64,000 nt of DNA from positions 18,808-82,807 of the forward strand of contig MHSR01000013.1 of NCBI GenBank assembly GCA_001822815.1, given 5' to 3'. The notes beneath the pieces are model-generated. The model did not search any database. It had not been told where the DNA came from and saw only the letters and a program-made list of their open reading frames with translations. Shown piece after piece: positions 4,419-52,279 of the stretch. This stretch comes from Candidatus Terrybacteria bacterium RIFCSPHIGHO2_01_FULL_43_35 (GTDB lineage: Bacteria; Patescibacteriota; Minisyncoccia; Terrybacterales; GWB1-40-14). The translations under genes and the position numbers were made by a program. The stretch's first letter is position 1, and each line of letters opens with the position of its first letter.

Positions 4419-5237
4419 TTATTCTTCGCTAATATCCTCTTCCAAATCCTTTTCTTCGTTGTCGTTTAAAATGCCTCCATGAATGTTCAATATTTCCTGC
4501 GCAAGTTGTTTGTAGGCAGTCGCGCCTGGTGAGTCGGGGGCCGCGTGGTATATTGTTTGTCCTCGTCCTGGCGCATCTGCCAATGCCACGCTTCGTGGAA
4601 TCACGGTATCAAAAACTCTGCCTTCAAAAGAGCGCCGCAGATCCTTAGCGATATTTCGCGCCGAAACATTCCTCCTATCATACAATGTTATCAGCGCGCC
4701 CAGAATATCTAACTTTGTTCCGATGTTGTCACGTATAAGATTTATGGTGTCTTGAAGCTGATTTAAACCCTGTATGGAAAAGAATTCGCACTGAACTGGG
4801 ATCAAGACTTCATCTGCGGCTACCAAACCGTTTATAGTAAGCAAACCCAAACTCGGCGGACAGTCTATAATTATGTAATCGTAGTCGGCCGCAAGATTAT
4901 GAAGCAGGTTTTTAAGCTTAAATTCCCTCTCGGGCAAATCAACCAATTCAACGGTTGCGCCAGCGAGGTCAGGCGCGGCAGGAAGAAGGTCGTAACCGAA
5001 AAATCCTGCTGAGCGCATAACATCCCGGGCAGGAACCTTTTCAAAAAGGGCATGATATATATGAACGGCTAAATTTTCCGGTTTGATTCCCACCCCTCCG
5101 GTTGCGTTACCTTGCGGGTCAAGATCAGCAAGTAGAACTTTCTTGCCCAATACCGCAAGATAAATACCGAGATTCATCGCTGTTGTGGTCTTGCCGGTGC
5201 CGCCTTTTTGATTTGCTATAGCAATAATTTTAGCCAC
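4419..5237 (-). CDS. parA: Chromosome partitioning ATPase ParA/Soj
   Basis: Deviant Walker A (IANQKGGTGKTTTAMNLG). GTG start read at 5235-5237. Confidence 0.85.
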   Translation of the reverse strand: MAKIIAIANQKGGTGKTTTAMNLGIYLAVLGKKVLLADLDPQGNATGGVGIKPENLAVHIYHALFEKVPARDVMRSAGFFGYDLLPAAPDLAGATVELVDLPEREFKLKNLLHNLAADYDYIIIDCPPSLGLLTINGLVAADEVLIPVQCEFFSIQGLNQLQDTINLIRDNIGTKLDILGALITLYDRRNVSARNIAKDLRRSFEGRVFDTVIPRSVALADAPGRGQTIYHAAPDSPGATAYKQLAQEILNIHGGILNDNEEKDLEEDISEE

Positions 5238-5344
5238 AAATCCAAATTAACACGAGCGTTTGGGCTTGGCAACGAACAAAAAAGGCTATATTATTTTTGT
5301 GGGCATGCGGCAGAACAGTATATTTGCCCTCACTCATCAATTTT

Positions 5345-5425
5345 GCCGAAGTGGCGGAATGGCAGACGCGCACGACTCAAAATCGTGTGAGGAAACTCAT
5401 GAGGGTTCGACTCCCTCCTTCGGCA
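5345..5425 (+). tRNA. tRNA-Leu (anticodon CAA), long variable arm, no encoded CCA
   Basis: Manual cloverleaf: acceptor GCCGAAG/CTTCGGC, D-arm, anticodon stem CACGA/TCGTG with loop CTCAAAA, long variable arm, T-arm GAGGG-TTCGACT-CCCTC. Confidence 0.85.
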
Positions 5426-5480
5426 CAAACGCAAAATTTAGTGCTGGGGCGCGCACCGACTTCTAGCACCAGAATGAATT

Positions 5481-5543
5481 CGGTGCGGTACAGGCAAAAT
5501 CGTGTGGAGAAATCCATGAGAGTTTGACTCTCTCCTCGCTCAC
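5481..5543 (+). pseudogene. Degenerate partial copy of the 3' half of tRNA-Leu (anticodon-stem remnant, variable arm, T-arm, acceptor 3' strand). It cannot form an acceptor stem.
   Basis: CAAAATCGTGTGGAGAAATCCATGAGAGTTTGACTCTCTCCTCGCTCACA is about 80% identical to the 3' half of the upstream tRNA-Leu. No complementary 5' acceptor strand lies upstream. Confidence 0.6.
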
Positions 5544-9883: not shown

Positions 9884-10130
9884 GCTAGTTGTTGCTCCCG
9901 AACCTTGCGAGGGATTGCAACAACTGCATCCCGAGCGCAGCGAGGGAGTACCTTAATGACGCTTGCCCACGAGCCGCGCGAGTGTTCCGACGATACGTCG
10001 GGACTAAAGCGCAACCGATGGATTACCTGTTAATGTTGGTGTTGCCCACACCATGCGTGGATGCAATTTCGTGCATCCCGACGCACGGTAAGGACTACTC
10101 TAACAACTTATTACTTCTATCATATCACCT
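9884..10130. repeat. Dispersed intergenic repeat element (family A) directly abutting the glmS start codon
   Basis: A 49-nt block (TTGCCCACGAGCCGCGCGAGTGTTCCGACGATACGTCGGGACTAAAGCG) is 48/49 identical to the reverse complement of 38772-38820. It shares the CTAGTTGTTGC start-proximal box with copies at 34581, 38858 and 39694. Confidence 0.7.
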
Positions 10131-12641: not shown

Positions 12642-12677
12642 AGTAAAAGTTAAAAATTTAAAGCGAAAAATGTAAAA

Positions 12678-13115
12678 TTAATCCAAGATTTCTTGCATTT
12701 TAGATAATACTATAGATCGCGCGTTGTCTTCGCCAAGCATATTAATAAATTTACCAAAAACGCTATCCATATCTAAATCACGTCTAAAAATAGGTTTAAA
12801 ATTAGAATAGGCAACAAAGCCTATCCCGTTTGCTGTTTTATTGCATCGGCATTCTAAAACAACATCGGTGTCATCAATACCACTATCTTTATAAATCCCA
12901 GTGTGATTTGACGATAACCAAATATCGAAATTTTTAGTAACAGCTATTGCAATGGCCTTACCGTCTTCAAGATCTCTTTTTAAATAACTTAAAGAAGAAC
13001 CTTCTCCAATTTTTACGCGCAAAATGCTAGACAGCTCTTCTGCGGAATATCTTTCTTTGTCTTCATCTACCTCTTTAATTTCGGCATGTGAAGTTGGTTT
13101 TTCTCTGGGGCCCAT
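12678..13115 (-). CDS. Hypothetical protein (145 aa)
   Basis: ORF in an operon-like array downstream of tatD. No motif recognised. Confidence 0.45.
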   Translation of the reverse strand: MGPREKPTSHAEIKEVDEDKERYSAEELSSILRVKIGEGSSLSYLKRDLEDGKAIAIAVTKNFDIWLSSNHTGIYKDSGIDDTDVVLECRCNKTANGIGFVAYSNFKPIFRRDLDMDSVFGKFINMLGEDNARSIVLSKMQEILD

Positions 13116-16244: not shown

Positions 16245-16952
16245 TTAATAAAAGATTATCGTGTATTCGCCGCGCGGCTTTTCTTTATTGATGTTCTCTA
16301 TCGCCTGTTCAAGCGTGCCGCGGAAAATGGTTTCAAATTTTTTAGTTAGTTCTCTGCCCACAATCACTTTGGCGTTGTCACCCAAAACGGCTCTGGCTTC
16401 CATGAGTGTTTTGGCGACGCGGTAAGGAGATTCGTAAATAATTTTTGGCATATCTTTAAAGACGGCCAGGTTATTGAAAAAAGTCTTTCTGCCTTTTTTG
16501 GTCGGCGGATATCCCAAGAATACGAAATTCTGCATCGGCAAACCAGAAACCGAAGCAAGTGCCGTCAGGGCGCTTGGACCAGGTATTGGCACAACTCTAA
16601 GCTCCATGCCAAGTATGCCATAAAGTCTGGCTACCAGTTCATTGCCTGGATCGGAAATGCCGGGCGTGCCGGCATCGGTGACCAGCGCGCAATTTTTGCC
16701 TTCGCGCAGCAATTGAGCAATATGAAAAGTTGCTTTCTCGCTACTGTGCTGATGGTACGCCTCAAGAAACGTGTTAATGTTATAATGTTTCAAAAGCGTT
16801 TTGGTTACGCGCGTGTCTTCGGCAAATATAAAATCGGCTTCCTTTAATATGCGGAGCGCGCGCAAAGAAATGTCTTCCAAATTACCTATTGGAGTAGCTA
16901 CAATATAAAGGTTTCCATACATACCTTTTATTTGTACTCGCAATAAAGACAA
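16245..16952 (-). CDS. rsmI: 16S rRNA (cytidine1402-2'-O)-methyltransferase
   Basis: Tetrapyrrole-methylase fold N-terminus (LYIVATPIGNLEDISLRALRIL...FAEDTR). Confidence 0.8.
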   Translation of the reverse strand: MSLLRVQIKGMYGNLYIVATPIGNLEDISLRALRILKEADFIFAEDTRVTKTLLKHYNINTFLEAYHQHSSEKATFHIAQLLREGKNCALVTDAGTPGISDPGNELVARLYGILGMELRVVPIPGPSALTALASVSGLPMQNFVFLGYPPTKKGRKTFFNNLAVFKDMPKIIYESPYRVAKTLMEARAVLGDNAKVIVGRELTKKFETIFRGTLEQAIENINKEKPRGEYTIIFY

Positions 16953-16974
16953 AAAGCAAAACCGTTATGATAGC

Positions 16975-17040
16975 TGGTAGTTAGTAGATGGTAGATAGAG
17001 ACGACTTTTCCTAACTACTAACTACAATCTACTATCTTCT
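16975..17040. promoter_or_regulatory. Imperfect palindrome in the rsmI / membrane-protein divergent intergenic region. A candidate operator.
   Basis: GGTAGTTAGTAGATGGTAGATAG...CTAACTACTAACTACAATCTACTATC arranged around a central gacgactttt. Confidence 0.35.
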
Positions 17041-17044
17041 AATT

Positions 17045-19322: not shown

Positions 19323-19452
19323 CCCGTTAGAAGCAGATCGCGATCAATGATCTCAATCTGCAAAATTATTTGTATGGATACTATAATATGACATAGGTAT
19401 TTTTACTGCTAATCTATTGCGATCGCGGCTTCTAACGGGATTCATGATTGGT

Positions 19453-20727
19453 TTATCGTGAAAGTATTCTCATTATACCATCTTTATTCTTATGCGGGCC
19501 AATCAAGGCTAGATTAAAGCGCGATGGTTTAAAAACGTCCTGGGCTACGGAAATTACATCACTGGAAGAAACTTCGCGTATTTTTTCAATGTAGTGTTCC
19601 GGTTTCTCAATAACATTCTTCAATAGCTCCTGCGTAGCAAGATAAGAGGCTACTTCATCCGTTTCCTCAAGACCAAGAAGAAAGCGACCAACTAGATAAT
19701 CCTTGGCTTTCAACAATTCTTTATGGTTGACTGGTTTTTTGGCTATCAAATCATATTCCCGGCGTATGGCCTCCAAGGCCCTAAGAACTTCGGAGTTCTT
19801 AATGCCGGCGTGCGACATGATGTATCCAGAATCGGTATCAAGAGAGGGCGAGGTGCCTATATAATAGGCCAATCCCAAATGATCGCGCACGTTCAAAAAC
19901 AGACGCGAACTCATGTTGCCGCCCAAAATTGTGGCAAGCACCAACAATGCGAACCTTCGCGGATCACGATGATTAAAAGCTCTGGCCCCGAAAGCGATGT
20001 GCGTCTGGTCGGTCGGCTTGAAAGAAAGCGTTACTTTCGGTTTGGTTTGATCTTCGTAAACCGGCGGTTTAACCGAAGATTCTCTTTTGGGTAAGGTGGA
20101 AAAGCGCCTGCTTATTTCGCGCGTAGTGTGTTTTGGGTCAATATTCCCCGCTACGCAAACAACCGTCCCTAGTGTACCGTAATATTTCTTAAAATAAGCG
20201 AGAATGTCTTTGCGGGTTATATGACTCACGGATTCTTTGGTGCCGCCCACGTACCATCCTGCCGGCTGATCGCCCCAGACAGTCTCTTCAAAAAGATCTT
20301 CGACGAAACGCGTTGGCGTATCAAAATAGAGATTGAGTTCTTCAAAGATTACTCGTCTTTCTTTTTCTATCTCTTTGCCTTCAAAAAGCGGGCTGGTGAG
20401 CATATCTGAAACTATATCCAGAGCCAAGTCGGTGTGTTGAGCTGAGGCTTTAACCCAATAGCCGGTATACTCTTTGGAAGTGAAGGCGTTATGTTCTGCG
20501 CCCACCCCATCCAAAACAGCAGCCACGGCTTCTGTTGTTGGCCGGTGACGTGTACCTTTAAAAAAGAGGTGTTCTAAAAAATGAGAAATGCCGTTTATTC
20601 TTTTCTGTTCGTATTTTGATCCGGCGGCCACGAGAACAAGCACTGTTACGGCTTGAGTTTGCTTCATAGGCGCCAAAATAACACGTAAGCCACTGGGCAA
20701 TTTAGTAAACTTGTATGGCAACATCAT
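19453..20727 (-). CDS. M16-family zinc peptidase (insulinase-like)
   Basis: Inverted zinc motif HxxEH (ISHFLEHLFFKGT) near the N-terminus. 424 aa. Confidence 0.75.
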   Translation of the reverse strand: MMLPYKFTKLPSGLRVILAPMKQTQAVTVLVLVAAGSKYEQKRINGISHFLEHLFFKGTRHRPTTEAVAAVLDGVGAEHNAFTSKEYTGYWVKASAQHTDLALDIVSDMLTSPLFEGKEIEKERRVIFEELNLYFDTPTRFVEDLFEETVWGDQPAGWYVGGTKESVSHITRKDILAYFKKYYGTLGTVVCVAGNIDPKHTTREISRRFSTLPKRESSVKPPVYEDQTKPKVTLSFKPTDQTHIAFGARAFNHRDPRRFALLVLATILGGNMSSRLFLNVRDHLGLAYYIGTSPSLDTDSGYIMSHAGIKNSEVLRALEAIRREYDLIAKKPVNHKELLKAKDYLVGRFLLGLEETDEVASYLATQELLKNVIEKPEHYIEKIREVSSSDVISVAQDVFKPSRFNLALIGPHKNKDGIMRILSR

Positions 20728-22561: not shown

Positions 22562-24262
22562 TTACGGCTGAACCTTGCCGCCTGAAGATGTATCGTCTGG
22601 AAGTTGCGTGGTTACCTCATCTACTTCAAATTCGCGCATTACACTCGTGAAAACATCCCGTCCGGTAACCTTGGCGCTCAAAACCAGCGGCACAAATTTA
22701 TCTATATCTTGAAAGCTGGGTATAAAACTTATCCTGAAGGAGAGTTCTCGTGGTTCACTTTTAATACCGATTCCCGCAGGCAGATCCCCGATGTTCCAGC
22801 GCAACTCGCGAGTGTTTTGATCCCAGATGATGGGTTCGTCTTCCGGGAAAAGTACGGCCACAAAATTTACTTCAGGAGCCAAAACTCCTCGCACGGTAAC
22901 ATTCTGCATGCCATTGGTGCCGCCGATAACATCCCAAACAACCGTATAGGTTGTGGTTTGTCCGACTCGCGGAGGCACGGGACCAGAATTTTGTCCGCCC
23001 GGAGCGTTGTTATACAGCACGCCCTGATTCAATATAAGCTTGCCGTTTATCCTGACCTCGTTGTTGGTGTCACCTAATTTTAATCCTCCGCTTTCGGCGT
23101 AAGAGCGGACGATAAACTTAGGGTTACGATCGTCTAAGGTGTTGAAGGGCGGGTTATTCAATATTCTACCTTGGAATATGAACTCTTTTTGCGCACCGGG
23201 ATTTATTGATCTCAAATCTAAAACCGTCGTTCCGTCAAAAATCCATTTTTCGCTGTCTTGCGATACCGATGTTTCTGTGGCGCGCAAACTGTTTATCTGA
23301 AAATATTTATCTGGTAAGAAGACGGTTAAAACCGTATTTTTAATAACTGTATTCGTGGTGTTGGTAATAAGCACCTTAAGATCAAAAGTCTCGCCAGGGT
23401 CAATTGCGGTGACTGCCGGATTGATAGCGCCCTGGAGGCGCTGGGATATTAAAAGCGATGAAATTGTCGGCCTTATTGTCTGGTTTTCTTCTTTGAAGGT
23501 TTGTATCAATCTTGAATGATCTTCACTTAATTGTCCCACCTTGAGTACGAAATCTCCGCCGGGCGCGCCGGGAGTAAATTTGCCCGTTATTGATATTTCT
23601 CCGGTGCTTACGGGATCAATAGTACCTAAATCCCAAAGACGGTAATTTTCGGAGGTTGTTTCTGGGGTACTGGAAACAAATTCAAACCCTTCTGGCTCAT
23701 CAAGCTGAAGGCCGATATTGGAGATAGGAATCTGCGCTTTGGATTCCCATGAAACTCTAAGGGTAAATTCTTTTCCTGGTGAAGGAACTTCGGGTATAGA
23801 AAGAGCTATATCAATCGGCAAAGACACGATTTTTATAGTTCTAGTTGCCTCTTTGCTGAATCTAAGCGACACAGCTTGCGTGCGGAAAGATAGTTCCGCT
23901 TTGGGCGTTATATCCCCACCGGGCAAAGTCGTGATCACCATACTAAAAGCAAAGGTTTTCTTTTCTCCAGGTGCCAATGCCGCAACACCGTCATTTTTTA
24001 CCCGTATGTTTGGGTCATCAGGGGCTTCGGTGCCGCTTGGATAAATAAAGGCCACGCGTACGTCTTGGAGCGCGGTGTCGGAGTTATTGATAACCACGGC
24101 ATAAATATCATGCTTCTCGCTGGAATCCACCGCCTGCTCGCTGACAATACTGAAGTCTATGCGATCTGTGCTAAAAAAAAGAAGCTGCGAGGCCGTAAAG
24201 GCGCCGCCGATAAACAATGAAACTATGCCTATAATTAATAAGGTTTTTGTCCGAGAGAACAT
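22562..24262 (-). CDS. Large secreted or cell-surface protein, hypothetical (signal peptide, beta-rich)
   Basis: N-terminal signal/anchor (MFSRTKTLLIIGIVSLFIGGAFTASQ). An alternative upstream start exists at 24289. Confidence 0.5.
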   Translation of the reverse strand: MFSRTKTLLIIGIVSLFIGGAFTASQLLFFSTDRIDFSIVSEQAVDSSEKHDIYAVVINNSDTALQDVRVAFIYPSGTEAPDDPNIRVKNDGVAALAPGEKKTFAFSMVITTLPGGDITPKAELSFRTQAVSLRFSKEATRTIKIVSLPIDIALSIPEVPSPGKEFTLRVSWESKAQIPISNIGLQLDEPEGFEFVSSTPETTSENYRLWDLGTIDPVSTGEISITGKFTPGAPGGDFVLKVGQLSEDHSRLIQTFKEENQTIRPTISSLLISQRLQGAINPAVTAIDPGETFDLKVLITNTTNTVIKNTVLTVFLPDKYFQINSLRATETSVSQDSEKWIFDGTTVLDLRSINPGAQKEFIFQGRILNNPPFNTLDDRNPKFIVRSYAESGGLKLGDTNNEVRINGKLILNQGVLYNNAPGGQNSGPVPPRVGQTTTYTVVWDVIGGTNGMQNVTVRGVLAPEVNFVAVLFPEDEPIIWDQNTRELRWNIGDLPAGIGIKSEPRELSFRISFIPSFQDIDKFVPLVLSAKVTGRDVFTSVMREFEVDEVTTQLPDDTSSGGKVQP

Positions 24263-24387
24263 GATGGAAGCTAAAAACGTAAAGTGCAAAACGAAAAATA
24301 ACTAAACGCGCGAAACGCTTTTGGCTATGCTTTAATTTTTTCGATATTCTTTTGCGCTTTTCGCTTTAAGCTTTACGCTATTGTAGA

Positions 24388-25149
24388 TTATACCACACGC
24401 TCTAAAAACCATGACACCGCAACTGGATTTGCTTCAACAAAGAAATCTTCTTTAAAAAGAAAGGTTATTAAGACTTTGTCCAAATGCTCGTAAACATGCT
24501 CCGGGATCTGGCCCGATATCCCTTCGTCCATAATGCGTTGAAGCGCGTATAGATCCTCTTTATCCAGTAAACATGAAGACGATTTCTCGCAGGAGCGACA
24601 TAAAATCTCGCCTGAAAAGTTAAAAACCGCACCGTCTTCAAATGATTGTTGGCACTGCGGGCATTTTTCAGATAAAACAAAGACCCCGGACATTTTAAGC
24701 ATTGACCAGAAAAACCTCTGCACGATTACCCAACATTTACGATCGCCTTGCCCGGCTTCAGTTCCAGAAAAAAACTGGGGCTGGGTGATCGCCCGAAAAG
24801 AAGCCAAAATGGTCAAAAACATGCGCTCGTCTTTTTCCGGCTGGACAACCAAAACGTCAATGATAAATGTTAAAAGTGTTGCGGCAAAAATATCTTTATA
24901 GCCAGACTCGCGCGTTATGAATGTCTCGATAGTTTTGGCGCCAGTAAGCAAAAGGTTGTTTTTGCCGCGCACAAAAGATAGTTCAACCAAAGAATAGGGC
25001 TGAAGGTCGGGGCGCAATTTCGCTTCCATCTTGCGTGCGCCTTTAGCCATAAAAGTCATTTTACCGAAAAGTTCAGTGTAGACGGTGGCCAAAATATCCG
25101 CTTCGCCGGATGTTTCGATTTTAATTATTATTGCGCGCGTTGAATCCAT
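24388..25149 (-). CDS. recO: DNA repair protein RecO
   Basis: N-terminal OB-fold-like region and a C-terminal CxxC...CxxC zinc finger (CPQCQQ...CRSC). Start taken at the internal Met (MDSTRAIIIKIE). Confidence 0.6.
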   Translation of the reverse strand: MDSTRAIIIKIETSGEADILATVYTELFGKMTFMAKGARKMEAKLRPDLQPYSLVELSFVRGKNNLLLTGAKTIETFITRESGYKDIFAATLLTFIIDVLVVQPEKDERMFLTILASFRAITQPQFFSGTEAGQGDRKCWVIVQRFFWSMLKMSGVFVLSEKCPQCQQSFEDGAVFNFSGEILCRSCEKSSSCLLDKEDLYALQRIMDEGISGQIPEHVYEHLDKVLITFLFKEDFFVEANPVAVSWFLERVV

Positions 25150-25468
25150 AAGAAAAGCGTAAAGTGTAAAACGAAAAGCGCAAAACAACAATGCAAAACT
25201 CAAAATAGATTAGTAAATCTACCGTTACCACTAATTTTCTTATATTTCTATACAAATTGAAAGGCCTCGCGTAGAAGAATTCTGTTTTGGTTGAGCGCTG
25301 TAATGGAAGCCGGTTAGCTGGCGGGCGAGTTCGTGAGCGTCATTAAGGCGAAGACCGAATTGGCCGGAACGGCTGTATAAATGGAGGGATCCCTTGCAGA
25401 CGCGAACGAATACGCCCGCCTGATAATTTATTTTCCTTAATACGTGAGCGTTAAGCGAAACCAAAATC

Positions 25469-28400
25469 TTATTTCGTCTTTCTAATCCCAATCCATATTT
25501 TACTGTCGCCAAGTGAAAACTCCCGTTCAATGATAAATGTTTCGTTCTTGCGCTTCTCCCCCGTCTCCACCCGTTTGGCATAAACATCTTCTTTTATTTC
25601 CTGCGCGCGCTCCATAATATCGCGTCCAAAGTTTTCACTGGCCCAAATGCGTAAAGTTATCCTCTCTTTTGGTTTCAAACCGGCATCTTTGCGAGTGTTT
25701 TGTATCTGCCGTACAAGCTCGCGCATGGCGCCAAGCAACATGAGGGTAGGCGTTATGTGTATATTCAGAGCCATACCTTGTTCGGTATCACGAAGCCATT
25801 CTTGCCCATCTGGCAAAGAAGAAAGTATAGCCACGCTGCCAACGTTCATTTCTTCACAAAGAACTCTAAAAAGACCCTTATCTAATTTTTCTTTATTGGC
25901 GACTTTGGCCGTAAGAACCAGGGACGAAAGCGGCTGGCGCACTTTATGTCCGCTTTGAGCCCTTAGTTTAAGCGCAATCTGAATTTTGGCGCGCAAAGCC
26001 TCCATACTTTTTTCAAGTTTGGAATTTTGGGTTTTTTTATTTATTTGAGGCATGCGCTCAAGATGCACCGAAGCCTTAAGCCCCAAGCCCAGCCATAACT
26101 GCTCGGCAACAAACGGAGCAAACGGGGCGGCCAGCAAAGCGGTTTGTTTCAAAACAAAACTAAGAACTTCTGTCACCTGGACAAGCTCTTTTTTATTTTT
26201 GGGATGCTGAAATCTTTCGCGCGAGCGTCTAATATACCAGTTGGACAGGTCATCAATCACAAAAGCGCTTAAAGCACGTGTGGCGGCGGTGATATCATAA
26301 TTATCCATGCGCTTAATAATCTGTTCGCTTGCGGTGGCAAGACGCGATAATATCCATTTATCAAGAATATCGGTTGACGCTGGCGCTTTCGTATTTTTTA
26401 GCGCGCTAGCGGCGTAAAGCTTAAAAAAGGATAGAGAATTCCAGAGCGTACCCAAAAATTTCTGCTGCGCGTCTTTAAGTTCTTCTTCGTTGAAGCGCTT
26501 AGTGTCTGACGGGTGATTCATGGTGTAGAAATACCAACGTACGGCATCGGCCCCGTAAAGATCGGTCATATCCCACGGGCTTATCGCATTGCCCAGAGAC
26601 TTGGACATTTTTTTGCCATTTTTATCTACCACGTGACCGGTCACAACAACATTCTTATACGGCGTGCTTTTGCCGAGCAAAACAGAAACAGCCATGAGGG
26701 TATAAAACCATCCGCGCGTTTGATCTACGGCCTCGCAGATGAAATCAGCCGGGAAAGAAAGAGCTTTTTTATTTCCGCTCTTCTCAACGCGGTTTTTATT
26801 TTCAAAAGGATAATGCCACTGGGCAAAAGGCATGGCACCGGAATCAAACCAGACATCAATTACTTCACTCACCCGTTTCATAGGATGCGCGCACTTTTTA
26901 CACGCAAAAGTCAGGTCATCAACAAAAGGACGGTGCAGATCCAAACGGCCAGTATCGTCTGAAGGCGGCATTGAAGAAAGGATTTTTTCTTCTTTAGCAA
27001 AATCGGGATATGTCAGTTTGGGCGTACCGGCTTTTTTTGTCTTGAGATACGGCTCAACATATTCTTTATCCTCCGCGCCAAGCAAAATACCCTTAAGCAG
27101 CAGTAAGGGATCGCCGTGCCCAACCAACACAATGGTTTTATCGTTATAGATTTTCTCGAGATTCTGTATAAAATAATACATGCGGTTTCTAAGATCGAAC
27201 CAATTTTCGCCATTTAATGGCTTTTTGTGCCAGCGTTCGCCTGGCTTGTGTTCCAGGAAATCGTGATATTCTTTTATCGGCATGCTGTTGAATGCTCCCA
27301 AATCAAACTCGCGCAGTTCTGTTTCTTTTTTGGGCTTGATACCGCACGCTTTCCCCATAATTTCCGCCGTATCATTTGCCCTTTGAAGTGGTGAGGTGAA
27401 AATAATATCTGGTTTGATCCGCGCAATTCTTTTTGCGGCAGCGCGAGCCTGTTTTATACCGCGAGCGGTCAATGGATTACGTTTGTTTTCGGGCCAAGAA
27501 GAAACCCAACCCTGTACATTAGCCCTGGCTTGGGCATGACGAACCAAAATATATTTATTTTTTGTCTGTGAACGGGACAAAAGCTCTTTTATTGAGCCGA
27601 TGACTTCAGTTTGACCACATTGTTCGCATTTCCAAACAGGCAGTGGTATGCCCCAGTAGCGCTCGCGCGATATTGCCCAATCCTTAACTTCGTTCAGCCA
27701 CTCTCCGAATCTACCTCTTTTTATGTGTTCCGGTACCCAATTTACTTTTTCATTAGCTTCGCGGAGCTGTTTGCGCAATGCCGACATGCGTATGAACCAA
27801 CTTTGGCGGGCGTAATAAAGTAGTGGAGTTTTGCATCGCCAACAGAAAGGATAATCGTGAGTATAAAGTTCTTCCTTTAAAATAAGGTTGCGCTGATGTA
27901 AATATGAATTTATCACTATTTCTGCTTCTTTTGATTTGACCGGCAAGCCCGCCAGACCAGCATTAACCGTGTTCAAAAATCTTCCGTCCTCGCCTACTGT
28001 ATGGACTTTCGGCAAGCCAATCTTTGAGCCCAAATTATAATCGTCCTCGCCATACATGACCGCGGTATGAACTACGCCGGTGCCGTCTTCAGTGGTCACG
28101 AAATCGGCGGCATAAACTTTATGACTTTTTTCGTTTTTGGTTTCTGGGATATCAAAAAGGGGTTCATATTCAAGCCCCACTAACCTTGAACCCTTAATTT
28201 CGGCTAAAATATTTAACGGCTCTTTAAATAAACGCGCTGCGGCATCTTTAGCCAAAATATAAACTTCACCGCTGCCAACCTGCGCTTGTACGTAATCTAT
28301 GTCGTTGTTTACAGCCAAAGCCACGTTACCCGGCAAGGTCCAAGGAGTTGTAGTCCAACTTAATATGTAAGTATGTTTTTTGTCTTTTATTCTAAATTTA

Positions 28401-28999
28401 ATATAAACCGAATTTTCGGTGACCGATTCATATCCTTGAGCAACTTCGTGCGAAGCCAAAGCCGTACCACAGCGCGTACAATAAGGCACGACCTTAAAAT
28501 CCTGCTCCAATAATTTTTTATTCCATATCTCTTTTATTATTCGCCAAACGCTTTCTATGTAAGAATTATCGTAAGTAACGTATGGATCTGTAAGATCCAA
28601 CCATAAGCCTATACGCTCGGTTAAGCGCTGCCATTCATCTTTATAGCGCCATACGGATGCTTTGGCTTTCGCGTTAAACTCGGCAATGCCATAATCTTCA
28701 ATTTCTTGCTTGGTTTTGAAGCCCAATTCTTTCTCAACTCCAATTTCAACCGGCAAGCCATGTGTATCCCAACCGGCTTTACGCTCAACCAAAAAACCTT
28801 GCATGGTTTTGTAACGCAAAAAAGCATCTTTGATTGCGCGAACCAAAACATGATGTATACCTGGCTGGCCGTTGGCTGTGGGCGGACCTTCAAAAAAAAC
28901 AAAACGCGGTGCGCGGGCGCGCCTCTTTAAACTTTTGGCAAAGATTTTATTATCTTCCCAATATCTAAGTATTTCTTTTTCTTGTTCGGCAAAGTTCAT
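25469..28999 (-). CDS. ileS: Isoleucyl-tRNA synthetase with an inserted histidine-phosphatase-like domain
   Basis: The N-terminal class I signature region reads ...GIHHV..., and WAISRERYWG, KMSKSLGN and the anticodon-binding domain are all present. Total length is 1176 aa, including an extra domain at aa 482-660. Confidence 0.9.
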   Translation of the reverse strand: MNFAEQEKEILRYWEDNKIFAKSLKRRARAPRFVFFEGPPTANGQPGIHHVLVRAIKDAFLRYKTMQGFLVERKAGWDTHGLPVEIGVEKELGFKTKQEIEDYGIAEFNAKAKASVWRYKDEWQRLTERIGLWLDLTDPYVTYDNSYIESVWRIIKEIWNKKLLEQDFKVVPYCTRCGTALASHEVAQGYESVTENSVYIKFRIKDKKHTYILSWTTTPWTLPGNVALAVNNDIDYVQAQVGSGEVYILAKDAAARLFKEPLNILAEIKGSRLVGLEYEPLFDIPETKNEKSHKVYAADFVTTEDGTGVVHTAVMYGEDDYNLGSKIGLPKVHTVGEDGRFLNTVNAGLAGLPVKSKEAEIVINSYLHQRNLILKEELYTHDYPFCWRCKTPLLYYARQSWFIRMSALRKQLREANEKVNWVPEHIKRGRFGEWLNEVKDWAISRERYWGIPLPVWKCEQCGQTEVIGSIKELLSRSQTKNKYILVRHAQARANVQGWVSSWPENKRNPLTARGIKQARAAAKRIARIKPDIIFTSPLQRANDTAEIMGKACGIKPKKETELREFDLGAFNSMPIKEYHDFLEHKPGERWHKKPLNGENWFDLRNRMYYFIQNLEKIYNDKTIVLVGHGDPLLLLKGILLGAEDKEYVEPYLKTKKAGTPKLTYPDFAKEEKILSSMPPSDDTGRLDLHRPFVDDLTFACKKCAHPMKRVSEVIDVWFDSGAMPFAQWHYPFENKNRVEKSGNKKALSFPADFICEAVDQTRGWFYTLMAVSVLLGKSTPYKNVVVTGHVVDKNGKKMSKSLGNAISPWDMTDLYGADAVRWYFYTMNHPSDTKRFNEEELKDAQQKFLGTLWNSLSFFKLYAASALKNTKAPASTDILDKWILSRLATASEQIIKRMDNYDITAATRALSAFVIDDLSNWYIRRSRERFQHPKNKKELVQVTEVLSFVLKQTALLAAPFAPFVAEQLWLGLGLKASVHLERMPQINKKTQNSKLEKSMEALRAKIQIALKLRAQSGHKVRQPLSSLVLTAKVANKEKLDKGLFRVLCEEMNVGSVAILSSLPDGQEWLRDTEQGMALNIHITPTLMLLGAMRELVRQIQNTRKDAGLKPKERITLRIWASENFGRDIMERAQEIKEDVYAKRVETGEKRKNETFIIEREFSLGDSKIWIGIRKTK

Positions 29000-30081: not shown

Positions 30082-30256
30082 ACTCCTTAGCTCTTTGAAA
30101 CCATTGGATTATTGACAAAAAGCTTTAACTAAAATTTAACCCCGCTAGAAGTCGCTGTCAAATGTATAAAAAAATTGCCCAAATTTTTTATACCGAAGAC
30201 TTCTAAGGGGGTCAATGATTAAAAATGACGAGTATTTATTGATTAACAAAACTGCC

Positions 30257-32544: not shown

Positions 32545-32594
32545 GTCTCCTCCTTACTTGGCTTTTGCCTGCCCGCTTCTTTGGTTTTAGTTAT

Positions 32595-32830
32595 TTAAAG
32601 GTGCGGATGGTGATGGGACTGGTATAGCGTAAGACGCCGAACGGCGTCACGTGCTTAACCGATGAATGGGACTGGGCTTTCGGCCTGCTCGTTTCAGAGT
32701 AGCTCTACTCCAGTAGCTTTCAGTACCACCCATATTTATCAACACGCTCTTTTTGCCTGAGGCATGGCCTGATCTTGCGGTATCAGGAAACCGTCATCTT
32801 CCCCATCACCACCAACCAAAACAAACATGT
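32595..32830. repeat. Copy 2 of the roughly 230-nt structured repeat
   Basis: See copy 1. Located immediately 5' (minus-strand sense) of the 89-aa gene. Confidence 0.6.
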
Positions 32831-33397
32831 TGTTGATGCAAACTTGCTTTGGTTGATGGCAATCAATGATTTAGTTTTTAAAAAACATTCTCATACAAGA
32901 CGAGACCCTCGGGCATGATCTTTTAGAAGATCACACCAGGGAGTCTCCTCTCGGAGTCTTACCTTCACCGCATCACGCTTAGCCCGCCAAAATTTTAAAA
33001 TAAAATTTGTATGTTTGCGGGGGTTGATGCGTTTTGACAGATGCTACACGCCAAACCGACGCTTCGGTTAAATCGCGGATGCCTCTGACACTGCAAATCA
33101 TTATACAAACCTATTGCATCCGCTCACGAAAGAATCAGTAAGGCGGTGACGACACCAAGCCTCCCAAGCTACTTGATGTCCTGCCTATGCATAGAAACTG
33201 TCAATGCATACTGTCAATAACTAAAGTATATCATATAAGTTTTAACTTGTCAAGAGCAAGAGGGTTGCTTTAGGCTTGTTTTGGATATTTTCTTTATTCT
33301 AAAAGGGTTATATTAAATTGTGATTTGTCAGAATATGCTGACATGTATGGGTTGAGTATGGTACTTCTAATTCAAACTTCGATATCGCCAGGCACTA

Positions 33398-33426
33398 TTG
33401 ACATTTATACCACATAATGATATAAT
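33398..33426 (+). promoter_or_regulatory. Consensus sigma70 promoter (TTGACA-17-TATAAT)
   Basis: TTGACA at 33398-33403, a 17-nt spacer, and TATAAT at 33421-33426, read directly. Confidence 0.7.
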
Positions 33427-33432
33427 TTTATT

Positions 33433-33797
33433 GTGCGGCATAAATGACCGCATGAAAACAAGCTCTCTTGAAGGAAGAGAGCAAGGAGTAGCGTTATGGG
33501 CAACGGGTAGGTAGCGTCTGAAGCAAAAGAATGTGGTATGCAAAACAAAGGCGCAAGGTAACTATTTACTAGACGCGCCCAAGATGAAAGCGGTACCAAT
33601 GGCTCTAGATCAAGCGCTGCCTTAACCCTCGGTTGTCAAACAGAGGATCGCAGAGCGATAAGAGCCCTAAAGACAAGCTTCAACGTTAACCCCTGGAAAA
33701 GGCCGCGCCTATCCAGACAAAAAACCCAAATCAAGCTCTCTTTGTTCTTTCTTCACCAAGGCCGCCACTCTACTCGAGAGGCGGCCTAAACTTTTAT
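33433..33797 (+). ncRNA. Candidate roughly 365-nt non-coding RNA of unknown class
   Basis: Bounded by the consensus promoter and an intrinsic terminator (GGCCGCC-13-GGCGGCC followed by TAAACTTTTAT, 33757-33797). No ORF longer than 20 codons. Internal hairpins are present, e.g. CTCTCTTgaaggAAGAGAG. Confidence 0.5.
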
Positions 33798-33851
33798 ACA
33801 AAAACTGCTTTTTATGCAGAGTTTAAAAGACGGAGCACTGCTTTCTGTTAT

Positions 33852-34580: not shown

Positions 34581-34900
34581 GTGCTAGTTGTTGCCCACGA
34601 CCCAGCTCTAATTTCTGAGCGTTTGGGCATTTCTAAAATTATAATGTATAATTTTATCTTGGTTTAAAACTTTTATCGAATTGTTTTTGGTAAATTAGGG
34701 CTGGATCGCGGTTGCAACGACGTGCATCTCTTCGAGTTCATCGAATCTGAGATTCTCTGAATCGAATGATCTGAAGACTCATCAGACGTTCGTCTCTTCG
34801 AGCCTGAGGGCTCCGCAGAGCCTGAACGGCCCGAGGACTCAGTCCCGAGGGAGTCTGAACGACCTAAGGAGCAAAGCGACGAGGGATTACTTTTCATTTA
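34581..34900. repeat. Composite repeat region (family A start-box plus degenerate serine-codon-like tandem units) abutting the TrmB-like gene start
   Basis: GTGCTAGTTGTTGCCCACGA lies directly after the start codon on the + strand. The 34700-34890 stretch resembles 39720-39800 and 31330-31400 (gcatctcttcgag..ctgaagactc..cgagggattac). Confidence 0.6.
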
Positions 34901-37058: not shown

Positions 37059-37104
37059 AACTGTATATTTATTATAATACCATGCTAAATTGGGATTAGA
37101 GATT

Positions 37105-38734: not shown

Positions 38735-38741
38735 TTACCTT

Positions 38742-38871
38742 AAATTAAAATAATGTAATCCTTCGACTACGCTTTAGTCCCGACGTATCGTCGGGACACT
38801 CGCGCGGCTCGTGGGCAATCCTTCGATAAACTCAGGATTGTCCTGAGCAAAGTCGAAGGACAACAACTAGC
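38742..38871. repeat. Family A repeat element inserted between rpmI and rplT
   Basis: Contains the 49-nt block that is the reverse complement of 9962-10010 (1 mismatch). It ends in CAACAACTAGC immediately before the rplT ATG. Confidence 0.7.
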
Positions 38872-39693: not shown

Positions 39694-39880
39694 GTGTTAG
39701 TTGTTGCCCGCGAGTTTGCTCGCGGATGCAACATGCATCTCTTCGAGTCTGAAGACTCTTCAGAGTCTGAACGACCCGAGCGAAGTCGAGGGATTACCTG
39801 CCAATTTTGCCCTCGCGGCAGCGGGGTGCAAAATTGTGCATCCTGAGCGGAGCGAAGGATTACCTAAAATTATACCATCA
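39694..39880. repeat. Family A repeat element abutting the NUDIX start codon
   Basis: GTGTTAGTTGTTGCCCGCGAG start-box. Internal units gcatctcttcgagtctgaagactcttcagagtctgaacgac, and CGAGGGATTACCT / CGAAGGATTACCT ends. Confidence 0.65.
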
Positions 39881-43897: not shown

Positions 43898-44099
43898 ATA
43901 TTTATTATACCTTGGCCAAACGCATACCCCAACTTTATTGGATTTTTATATTGTTGTTAACGAAAAGGTTATTTTTCTAGATGGCTCTTAGAGTTATCGG
44001 GGTTCACAAAAATATTTAAATCTGCTTGAGCCAACATTTGGGATACTGAACCAAAAACACCCCTTGAGGGGTGTTTTGTCGAGTGATACCGCGCTGAAT

Positions 44100-47338: not shown

Positions 47339-47585
47339 TCAAACAGCAGTTTAAACCAACAACGGCTCGATCTTCGATCGGGCTGTTTTTCTACGTACTA
47401 ACATTACGATATACTATTGCCAAATTAGTTAATATATAGCTCTTCGCAGCAATACTATTTGGCGGGCGGCCTTGTGAGCAACATGAGGGCCAAGGACCCT
47501 TTGTCGGTACGACTTTATAAATGGAAAGGTCCCCTACAGTTGCGAACAAGGGCGCGCGCCAATAACTTAATACGACCCCGCTGTA

Positions 47586-51149: not shown

Positions 51150-51169
51150 GGATAAAAATTATATTGCGT

Positions 51170-51421
51170 CTAATTAGCTAAAAATACCTTGTCTCCGGCT
51201 TTTGTTTTCTGGTCAAGTTTCATGCCTATTTCATCTCCGGTGCTAGCGCTTGCTATTGCCTTATGATCGACTTCCATAGAGGAAACTTGTTGGATGAAAT
51301 CGGCACTTGCGCCTTTAACGTGTATACTATCCCCTATTTTAAGTGGTCCTGAGAGCTTAAGTACGGCAACTCCGATATTGCCGTAAAAGTGTGTTATGGT
51401 AGCAATTTGTTTCTCTTCCAT
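51170..51421 (-). CDS. Small beta-barrel protein (83 aa), EF-Tu domain-2-like, hypothetical
   Basis: Short ORF preceding the LOG-family gene. Assignment is tentative. Confidence 0.35.
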   Translation of the reverse strand: MEEKQIATITHFYGNIGVAVLKLSGPLKIGDSIHVKGASADFIQQVSSMEVDHKAIASASTGDEIGMKLDQKTKAGDKVFLAN

Positions 51422-51425
51422 ATAT

Positions 51426-52034
51426 TTATTTTATGCGTCTTCTATTTTTTTGCGAAGACGTATTACTTCTAATATTCTTGGTTTGACTTTCTTCTAGCAA
51501 TTTTATAACTTTGGCAACTAGGCGCTTGGGATTGCTATCGTAACATATGGCTCCCGTGCCGCGATGGGCTCTGGCTACCAAGCTTTTAATAATTTCGGTT
51601 ACTCCGCCAGAACCCACCAAAACACCTATAGGTTTTTTATCCTCAAATGCAATAGTGAATTCATTGAGAGTTCCCATCCTACCGCAAATCAAAATTACGG
51701 CATCGGCGGCGCGCGTAAGCAAGAGATTGCGCCCGGAATAATCAAAACCCGTATAGACTATTATATCAAAATAATCTGTAGGTAGCCTATAAGTTTTCAC
51801 ATGAGCTTCTTCAGAGGCTGCTGGCGATAAGCCTATGGAAAGACCTCCGGCTTCTTTTGCGCCTATAGCTGCCCAATAAGGAATGCCGTTGGTCGCACCA
51901 GTAACCAAAACCCCTCCTTGCAATATTATTTCTCGTCCAACTTCTTTGGCAAATTCTGTCGCCTTAGGTGAACACCAATCTGTCTCGGCGGCTCCGGAAA
52001 CGCAAATCTTATATTTTTGATACTTATTAGACAT
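51426..52034 (-). CDS. LOG-family protein (TIGR00725-like Rossmann-fold nucleotide-binding protein)
   Basis: GGVLVTGATNGIPYWAAIGAKEAGGLSIGL...PIGVLVGSGGV motifs. ATG taken at the internal Met; the ORF track begins at an upstream TTG. Confidence 0.6.
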   Translation of the reverse strand: MSNKYQKYKICVSGAAETDWCSPKATEFAKEVGREIILQGGVLVTGATNGIPYWAAIGAKEAGGLSIGLSPAASEEAHVKTYRLPTDYFDIIVYTGFDYSGRNLLLTRAADAVILICGRMGTLNEFTIAFEDKKPIGVLVGSGGVTEIIKSLVARAHRGTGAICYDSNPKRLVAKVIKLLEESQTKNIRSNTSSQKNRRRIK

Positions 52035-52279
52035 AAAGAAGTGCAAAACGTAAAACTAAAGGCGCAAAACAAAAACCCAAGCCCTTAATATACTTTAACT
52101 CTGGATTGCTTTTACTTTTTCGCTTTGCACTTTACGCTTTTATTATACCTCGCTAGATAAATTGTGTGAAATTATTATAGAAATAAGATTAGATTAAATC
52201 ACCAAACAGCCCCGGCAACCAAAAAGTCTTGATGGACTTTTTGGTTCTCGGCTTTATCGTAATTTTCTAACGGGACAGG

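Follow-up and report, generated by a model that had tools for sequence, protein, structure and literature searches.

The window analysed here is a stretch of 64 kb from a Candidatus Terrybacteria genome (Rifle aquifer), and all in-window searches cover these 64 kb. Within it, three minus-strand genes start directly next to a pyrimidine-rich box: the gene for a 566-aa secreted or anchored protein (locus A), recO (locus B) and a LOG-family gene (locus C). The original prediction described these boxes as a near-identical, U-rich leader without a Shine-Dalgarno (SD) sequence, shared by unrelated genes. The boxes do adjoin the minus-strand start codons at 24262, 25149 and 52034, they occupy the leader position without an SD sequence, and hairpins span the leader at two of the loci; near-identity, however, is true only of a core of 19 nucleotides (nt), and a dedicated leader or regulon signal did not hold up. 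We consider it probable that the boxes are the inverted-repeat arms of a small, likely mobile cassette that carries a gene for a four-helix-bundle protein, of which the window holds gene-less remnants.

Genes and hairpins at the three loci

The start codons, arms, hairpins and promoter-like sites of the three loci are:

24260-24262, minus strand: ATG of the 566-aa secreted/anchored protein gene
24269-24311, plus strand: 3' arm of locus A, the U-rich box of the minus-strand RNA, ending 5-6 nt before the ATG at 24262
24268-24380, minus strand: whole hairpin of locus A, 113 nt, without an open reading frame (ORF), from the recO stop codon and -10 box to the start of the next gene
24387-24397, minus strand: extended -10 box TGTGGTATAAT, which shares bases with the recO stop codon (24388-24390) and stands 7 nt ahead of the locus A 5' arm
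25147-25149, minus strand: ATG of recO (Pfam RecO_N)
25155-25211, plus strand: solo arm of locus B with the decayed start of a four-helix-bundle ORF; on the minus strand, a U-rich box ending 6 nt before the recO ATG
52032-52034, minus strand: ATG of the LOG-family gene (precomputed Pfam LDcluster4, LOG-like)
52035-52082, plus strand: 3' arm of locus C, running into the ATG at 52034 on the minus-strand RNA
52100-52139, minus strand: 5' arm of locus C, AGCGTAAAGTGCAAAGCGAAAAAGTAAAAGC...
52035-52139, minus strand: whole ORF-less hairpin of locus C, between promoter and LOG-family gene
52142-52170, minus strand: promoter-like site TTCACA-17-TATAAT, 11/12 consensus positions, ending 3 nt before the locus C 5' arm

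On the minus-strand RNA, locus A reads as the -10 box TGTGGTATAAT, 7 nt, a purine-rich arm AGCGUAAAG..., a loop, the U-rich arm, 5 nt and AUG. At recO the U-rich arm stands alone, with no purine-rich partner. The Pfam matches agree with the predicted identities of recO and the gene at 52034; for the gene at 24262, predicted to encode a secreted protein, a hydrophobic stretch at the N-terminus and only a faint CLIPPER match in the precomputed Pfam annotation were found. Public gene calls put the recO start at an upstream TTG within the arm (267 aa, P0001), while alignment with relatives supports the ATG at 25149 (253 aa).

A fourth gene, leuS, is preceded on the minus strand by a U-rich box that occupies the whole 36-nt spacer from the stop codon of the gene at 12678-13115 to the leuS GTG. 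This GTG (12641-12639) is most likely the leuS start, because the conserved N-terminal sequence of leucyl-tRNA synthetase (PYNPKKIEARWQKYW) precedes the first in-frame ATG at 12515.

None of the three box-bearing genes (24262, recO, 52034) has an SD sequence, although SD sequences are present at other window genes. Many promoters of the window are of a leaderless type (TATAAT-N6-9-ATG). A TATAAT-like box lies 6-12 nt from the ATG of many genes that lack an SD sequence (43898-43930, 51150-51180, 51422-51450, 37059-37090), suggesting leaderless or near-leaderless mRNAs, and GGAGG occurs at only about nine of roughly 60 window genes.

The 19-nt core, GTAAAGTGCAAAACGAAAA, has three matches in the window at no more than one mismatch, compared to 0.05 expected by shuffling, and none of 100 shuffles reached three:

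24279-24297, plus strand: copy of the 19-mer
25159-25177, plus strand: copy of the 19-mer, one mismatch
52117-52135, minus strand: copy of the 19-mer, one mismatch

The 18/19 match between the first two copies had been noted before, with the second copy placed one base off, at 25160-25178. A profile built from the window copies identified five arms with E values from 3e-9 to 6e-7 and no other convincing match in the window:

24263-24311, plus strand: arm, locus A
24340-24385, minus strand: arm, locus A
25151-25197, plus strand: arm, locus B
52035-52082, plus strand: arm, locus C
52100-52143, minus strand: arm, locus C

The sixth, weaker arm upstream of leuS (12646-12678) is marginal with this profile (E 0.15). 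The inverted partners predicted at 24335-24380 and 52105-52140 are present, and fold with the boxes at -30 and -32 kcal/mol. In contrast, a partial copy proposed at 33520-33545 gives E = 19 with this first profile and is absent with a second one, described below. Across 42 nt the three plus-strand boxes are 64-79% identical to one another, their closeness being confined to the 19-nt core, and arm A1 matches C2 at 93% over 27 nt compared to about 70% with its own partner.

The arms frame a four-helix-bundle gene in other genomes

In three loci selected by their motif (L033 and L067, Omnitrophota; L102, Doudnabacteria) the two arms enclose an ORF of 116-124 aa. The encoded product is a four-helix-bundle protein (TIGR02436, E 2e-25; PF05635, 23S_rRNA_IVP, E 3e-22; PDB 2RLD, E 7e-17). 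In the wider set of MAGs the framed gene codes for 124-126 aa. The ORF start codon lies within the purine-rich arm (...GCGAAAA-(A/G)TG-CAAAAYAACAAC.CAAAA...) and the pyrimidine-rich arm starts directly past the stop codon. The U-rich boxes of the window align with the 3' trailers of these cassettes. Full-length relatives with a PF05635 / TIGR02436 ORF in the loop are L033, L067, L102, L151, L154, L156 and L158.

The association was also found in the reverse direction, with homologues picked by protein similarity alone and their contigs then checked for arms. Arms were present on both sides in 5/5 of these homologues (nhmmer E 7e-10 to 0.12): P0140 (Parcubacteria GW2011_GWA2_40_8), P0186 (Yanofskybacteria), P0238 (Azambacteria), P0165 and P0124 itself.

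Each of the seven distinct ORF-bearing cassettes lies downstream of a co-directional gene and starts at, or a few bases from, the stop codon of that gene; none has an evident promoter of its own. Together, these features fit a life inside host transcripts. In one assembly of a GW2011_GWA2_40_8 relative (L151, 212-1575) two identical cassette copies flank a 154-aa gene; the other assembly (L152, 1201-1575) has one copy and the gene is gone. That the assemblies differ by one cassette copy plus the intervening gene points to recombination between copies.

We built the second nhmmer profile solely from foreign, ORF-bearing four-helix-bundle cassettes and then ran it on the window, with the following matches:

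25155-25211, plus strand: arm B1 (locus B), E 6.5e-13, 57 of about 60 model positions (2-58)
24380-24326, minus strand: 5' arm of locus A, E 2e-9, model positions 2-56; the minus-strand RNA is purine-rich here (AGCGTAAAGCTTAAAGCGAAAAGCGCAAAAG...)
52139-52116, minus strand: 5' arm of locus C, E 2.4e-4
24269-24301, plus strand: 3' arm of locus A, E 0.0037
12652-12680, plus strand: leuS arm, E 0.0098
52040-52079, plus strand: 3' arm of locus C, E 0.01

The best match, B1, aligns with the 5' ends of the cassettes through their first eleven codons. Its start codon is mutated to GCG and a stop follows ATA GAT (GCG CAA AAC AAC AAT GCA AAA CTC AAA ATA GAT TAG), and the 11 decayed codons, at 25179-25214, give a weak tblastn match to the N-terminus of the four-helix-bundle protein. 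Four elements make up the window inventory: ORF-less hairpins at loci A and C, a half copy of 57 nt at locus B in which the first codons have decayed, and a short arm at leuS.

Distribution of the arms

A scan with CGTAAAGNKYAAARCGAAAA, using one genome per species, returned at least 119 loci, about half of which are chance matches inside coding sequence. The others have extra conserved bases on either side of the pattern, with the consensus AGCGTAAAGYGYAAAGCGAAAAGCGYAAAAC, and form purine-rich arms of about 30-55 nt. The arms are built of 7-8-nt modules (GYGNAAAR) in a fixed order, and their outer end is conserved (AGCGTAAAG ... CTTTACGCT); in the module GCGYAAAA, C and T are about equally frequent. 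Among the matches listed, family-like copies lie in spacers, usually with an inverted partner 20-150 nt away, and many metagenome-assembled genomes (MAGs) contain several of them. The hosts among these matches include many Omnitrophota MAGs, Patescibacteria (Paceibacterota, Nealson-, Doudna-, Giovannoni- and Saccharibacteria), Brocadiia, Phycisphaerae and Anaerolineae, and one Caldilineaceae MAG holds at least nine copies of a short (about 80-nt) subfamily.

The genomic contexts are diverse. In tandem gene contexts the hairpin frequently begins 0-4 nt past the upstream stop codon, and some copies precede an ordinary SD sequence and ATG. Family arms also lie between consecutive tRNA genes (L058, 4588-5033), 7-8 nt past a tRNA (L002, 1282-1393; L011, 264-375) and at the 3' end of a cobalamin riboswitch aptamer (L035, 3972-4202). 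In L102 (4864-4870) the arm supplies the end of the upstream gene, the parB stop being the TAA of CGTAAAG, and in L129 (3838-3853) an arm remodels the last codons of the isoleucyl-tRNA synthetase (IleRS) gene, which read LRKIKN* instead of IRKTK*. Arms or loops of family elements enclose a GC-rich mini-hairpin (CCTGCCTACCGGCAGGCAGG, in either orientation) in L026, L051, L074, L081, L112, L113 and L114, both in Omnitrophota-labelled and in Paceibacterota-labelled MAGs.

These contexts bear on whether the U-rich box could be a dedicated, SD-independent translation leader, for example a landing site for ribosomal protein S1, with the purine-rich partner as a masking arm. The four box-bearing window genes without an SD sequence would fit such a role, as would a box ending 0-6 nt from the start codon, the better sense-strand fold at locus C and one L129 locus, and the differently worded yet similarly U-tract-rich boxes that L129 has before recO and the M16 peptidase gene. 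The expectation that the matches would be tied to start codons was borne out in part: the distance from the outer end of the arm to the start codon peaks at 5-6 nt across phyla, with 8/39 arms with a nearby ORF (including recO) at this distance, and the remainder are not so placed. Yet in many phyla an unrelated small gene has this same sequence as its 5' flank, start region and 3' trailer, copies also lie past stop codons, between tRNAs and ahead of ordinary SD sequences, and close relatives express the same genes from the same -10 box without the U-rich box. A dedicated leader or regulon signal fails because the same sequence ends a cassette, follows stop codons, sits between tRNAs and is dispensable in relatives. 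The suggested comparison with Rfam yielded no such family: none matched at gathering score, and at E values up to 10 only chance-level microRNA-precursor matches were obtained. We therefore regard a translation leader as distinctly unlikely. A presumed resemblance of GCGUAAAG to 16S positions 567-575 was dropped as untestable and probably coincidental.

The 5-6-nt peak would also be expected if each arm were an outward-facing sigma-70-type promoter (TTGCGC, 16 nt, TACGCT) with a leaderless ATG 6 nt on, the element being a portable bidirectional promoter and the hairpin untranscribed. This geometry fits recO (TTGCGC-16-TACGCT-tttctt-ATG), the window uses TATAAT-N6-9-ATG promoters, and an element that displaces a native -10 box would have to bring a new one. 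Nevertheless, the two hexamers agree with the consensus at only about 3/6 positions each, which is below the threshold of the promoter scan, and the scan listed none of them; the TTG varies, as the GCGYAAAA module has C or T about equally. Moreover, locus C has no -10-like hexamer in reach of the ATG and a strong promoter upstream of the whole hairpin instead, and in ORF-bearing cassettes the ORF start codon lies within the arm and not 6 nt beyond its end. Promoter activity of the arms is thus unlikely. That a promoter always stands ahead of the 5' arm holds in the window; across phyla a -10-like hexamer was found at 6/49 arms compared to 2-4/49 in shifted controls, and this candidate rule was rejected. 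A role as terminator was likewise rejected: the window has ordinary GC-rich terminators at other places, and a gene whose promoterless ATG directly followed a terminator would not be expressed.

Gain and loss in related genomes

Gene order at the loci is kept in other Terrybacteria, both for IleRS, RecO, secreted protein and prolyl-tRNA synthetase (ProRS) and for the beta-CASP nuclease and LOG-family gene. A metagenome scan with RecO gave four loci, including L141. The RecO of L129 is 56% identical to that of the window, and L141 and L129 share 80% nucleotide identity.

At the junction between RecO and the secreted protein the window has the 113-nt hairpin, and the hairpin of L129, about 173 nt long, is a different one that shares the outer ends. 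L141 reads TGTGATATAAT-AGAAAGCG-ATG at this position, a leaderless-type arrangement without a hairpin and with the -10 box 8 nt from the ATG; the -10 box of locus A is kept in both L129 and L141. Between IleRS and RecO, L141 has TAA-ATG, compared to 147 nt in L129 and 319 nt in the window. At the two junctions that are empty in L141, the spacers of the window and L129 measure 125-319 nt. The locus A copy is either ancestral and lost in L141, or was gained twice.

The nuclease/LOG-family junction measures 11-30 nt in L143, L145, L147 and L149, in which a -10 box overlaps or lies just downstream of the stop codon and is followed by 9-10 nt to the ATG. In the window this spacer is 245 nt long and carries its own promoter and the hairpin. 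Given the short junctions in four relatives, the locus C copy is a derived gain.

The empty sites of relatives show that the elements come and go and that the neighboring genes can be expressed without them. In the minimal junctions of this compact genome, dispensable DNA is left only from the -10 box (or stop codon) to the ATG, which explains why the elements abut start codons.

Conservation and folding of the arms

The four-helix-bundle ORF between the arms evolves with a proportion of non-synonymous differences (pN) of 0.11-0.30 and of synonymous differences (pS) of 0.7-1.0. The resulting pN/pS of 0.10-0.42 indicates that the ORF is under purifying selection, with synonymous sites saturated. 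In the same cassettes the non-coding arms share 76% identity over 45 columns, compared to about 37% estimated by chance for their A-rich composition. As this identity persists despite saturated synonymous sites, the arms are constrained at the sequence level, in a pattern that resembles terminal inverted repeats recognized by a sequence-specific factor.

Cassette arms pair at -23 to -43 kcal/mol, compared to -14 to -17 kcal/mol with shuffled partners. This pairing energy arises because both arms obey one consensus, and compensatory change lends it no support: the purine-rich arm matches the reverse complement of its own partner at 0.76 and that of other cassettes at 0.75, so that co-evolution of partner arms was rejected. 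In the window, the locus A hairpin has a predicted energy of -30 kcal/mol (z -1.0) with sense and antisense strands folding equally well, and the locus C hairpin of -32.4 kcal/mol (z -2.4), with -30.0 for sense and -21.0 kcal/mol for antisense. The sense strand also folds better at one L129 locus. Selection at the RNA level, as read from G-U asymmetry, would agree with the folds at locus C and this L129 locus, but was rejected overall since the better-folding strand is split 11 versus 11 between sense and antisense in 22 tandem contexts in other genomes.

Other repeats and features of the window

The window contains further repeat families. A second leader family consists of GC-rich structured elements of about 130 nt at 9884-10030, 34581-34860, 38740-38871 and 39694-39830, whose ends, ...GGGCAACAACTAGC(AC), adjoin four start codons (9883-, 34580-, 38872+, 39693-). 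It includes long repeats (9963-10026 versus 38755-38818, 92%; 34786-34835 versus 39731-39780, 80%) and has no Rfam match at gathering score. A third type of hairpin, CCCGTTAGAAG...CTTCTAACGGG, with its 3' arm abutting an ATG, occurs in the window at 19323-19460 and about 30090-30250, and in L141 at 5190-5332. The L141 copy lies within an insert of about 390 nt that separates the secreted-protein gene from ProRS; in L129 these are 6 nt apart.

The spacer between IleRS and recO contains a GC-rich element, GGCGGGCG...CGCCCGCC (25320-25420), which is repeated at 72% in another spacer (47500-47560) and has no Rfam match; L129 has different GC-rich hairpins in the same spacer. The IleRS itself (25469-28999, 1176 aa) carries a His_Phos_1 histidine-phosphatase domain inserted in the synthetase core, an insertion that is kept in a relative. 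In the spacer of a divergent gene pair (16923-17044) we find a purine/pyrimidine hairpin of different modules (TAGTAG type), and L031 (Omnitrophota) has similar wording beside a family arm of the type described above.

A stretch of 1.3 kb at 32545-33851 lacks a long ORF, has TGTGGTATAAA ahead of it on the minus strand (about 33405-33415) and matches no Rfam family at E values up to 1. Finally, tRNA-Leu(CAA) at 5345-5426 is followed 117 nt on by an 83% copy of its 3' half (5495-5536), which was not called as a tRNA by ARAGORN or Rfam.

Discussion

From the family membership of the copies, their architecture and distribution, their presence or absence at orthologous junctions and the sequence conservation of the arms, all of which are shown here, a model can be proposed. 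The cassette sits co-directionally within host transcription units of many Patescibacteria, Omnitrophota and other uncultured lineages. With moderate confidence we infer that transcription from the upstream -10 boxes runs through the window hairpins, which would make up the entire 5' leader at loci A and C, that the recO and leuS arms are transcribed as intercistronic spacer, and that the transcribed hairpins fold on themselves. With lower confidence, and by analogy to described systems, RNase III may cut the stem and separate the downstream message from the insert, which could explain why a formerly leaderless gene tolerates it. The arms themselves would be recognition sites used in the spread or maintenance of the cassette, and the candidate reader, the only one encoded by the element, is its own pentameric four-helix-bundle protein.

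Several observations weigh against this interpretation. The folding z-scores of the window hairpins are modest, and with the even strand split and the equal complementarity of partners and non-partners a selected RNA helix is not demonstrated by folding or partner complementarity. No intact four-helix-bundle gene was found in the window by tblastn or hmmsearch, so that the window copies are ORF-less derivatives and one half copy, and their link to the cassette is through the arms and 11 decayed codons. Comparison of filled with empty sites revealed no target-site duplication at any filled site, no transposase-like gene adjoins the cassettes examined, and no mechanism of movement was found. The filled site at locus A could be ancestral and deleted in L141, the empty site of which keeps AAAGCG. 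Both transcription through the hairpins and the RNase III cut belong to the conditional part of the model, and no RNase III signature motif was detected within the 64-kb window. The taxon labels of the MAGs that define the host range may be imperfect.

Some of these points would equally suit an ordinary selfish palindrome of the repetitive extragenic palindromic (REP) or miniature inverted-repeat transposable element (MITE) type, acting at the DNA level only and without an RNA role, its link to four-helix-bundle genes reflecting shared accumulation in spacers. The elements are multi-copy, extragenic and polymorphic for insertion, the Caldilineaceae MAG has its at least nine copies of the short subfamily, there is no strand bias in folding across phyla, and partner arms are not more complementary than non-partners. 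However, in all five genes picked by protein similarity both arms keep a fixed register relative to start and stop codon, each of the seven ORF-bearing cassettes runs in the same direction as the host gene upstream, and a GTAG motif is absent, as are the target-site duplication and transposase. We consider a DNA-level palindrome very unlikely, and the remnant of a four-helix-bundle cassette the probable origin of the boxes.

A bolder extension of the cassette model is conceivable, though doubtful. The arms would then be arrays of five to seven 7-8-nt modules bound by the cassette's own pentameric S23p / Avd-like protein, and arm, ORF and arm together an unrecognized mobile element that spreads between phyla, settles in any transcribed spacer and is rendered harmless through removal by RNase III. 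Such spacers would include mRNA leaders of leaderless genes, spacers of tRNA operons and rRNA, where the element is seen as an intervening sequence. If true, the orphan PF05635 family would gain a function, and the origin of intervening sequences in rRNA would be explained.

The four-helix-bundle ("23S rRNA IVS protein") genes are among the commonest unexplained small bacterial genes, and the origin of rRNA intervening sequences is unsettled. The family members outside rRNA have a conserved inverted-repeat frame that is common to several phyla, and gene-less hairpins are left in the leaders of housekeeping genes. Our analysis thereby links three things that are usually annotated apart or not at all. 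In genomes of the Candidate Phyla Radiation (CPR) and Omnitrophota the hairpins inflate spacers, can supply stop codons to upstream genes, and mislead start-codon calling, as for recO, called 14-18 codons too long. They also turn leaderless genes into genes with long structured leaders, which raises the question of how an SD-less AUG is translated at the foot of a helix of roughly 35-40 bp (with mismatches).

Within the limits of an incompletely searchable literature, we found nothing that describes the arm consensus or its link with four-helix-bundle genes outside rRNA, no match for the arm sequence strings, and nothing relevant on repeats and leaders of CPR or Omnitrophota.

Comparison with known systems

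The elements resemble the REP sequences and bacterial interspersed mosaic elements (BIMEs) of enterobacteria and pseudomonads, as short, multi-copy, imperfect palindromes in spacers, often just past stop codons, that vary between relatives. In contrast to REP and BIME sequences, the arms have AGCGTAAAG as head rather than GTAG, no REP-associated tyrosine transposase (RAYT) is seen beside the cassettes, and the arms are 30-55 nt long, with 7-8-nt modules, a purine/pyrimidine strand asymmetry and a protein-coding full-length form.

With MITEs such as the Correia elements of Neisseria they share inverted-repeat ends (AGCGTAAAG...CTTTACGCT), short non-autonomous derivatives, insertion between promoter and gene, and, as proposed here, co-transcription with neighbors. 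Correia elements are RNase III substrates. Unlike for MITEs, no target-site duplication is seen, and the parent element encodes a four-helix-bundle protein and not a known transposase.

The cassette protein belongs to the same four-helix-bundle fold family as PDB 2RLD and Avd of diversity-generating retroelements, and PF05635 has been treated together with Avd (PMC10053308). In contrast to Avd, the cassettes examined have no adjoining reverse transcriptase and no template or variable repeats.

The closest described system is that of the S23p intervening sequences of Coxiella, Leptospira and others, in which the same PF05635 ORF lies within stem-forming terminal inverted repeats. The intervening sequence of the Coxiella 23S rRNA, which has been called selfish, measures 428 nt and contains a decaying S23p ORF; the inverted repeats at its ends pair to give a 28-bp stem that is cut by RNase III, and purine-rich tandem heptamers with a poor SD sequence stand directly before the ATG (PMC4990558). 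In the CPR, rRNA genes are reported to contain 23S_rRNA_IVP ORFs and short intervening sequences (PMC11270868). The S23p intervening sequences and the present elements alike carry purine-rich 7-nt repeats immediately ahead of the ATG, lack a good SD sequence and occur in ORF-less or decaying versions; either kind is located within a host transcript (for the present elements, presumably so) and is regarded as selfish and horizontally spread. Unlike the S23p intervening sequences, which lie in helix 25 or 45 of the 23S rRNA gene, the elements described here are found outside rRNA, in the window and at most loci in mRNA leaders and in intercistronic and tRNA-operon spacers; the window has no rRNA, and loci A, B and C lie between protein-coding genes. 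They also have a specific arm consensus that is common to several phyla, and for them cleavage by RNase III is suggested by analogy. What the window contains is a degenerate form, devoid of the gene, of a four-helix-bundle cassette that resembles an intervening sequence and occurs widely in uncultured phyla.

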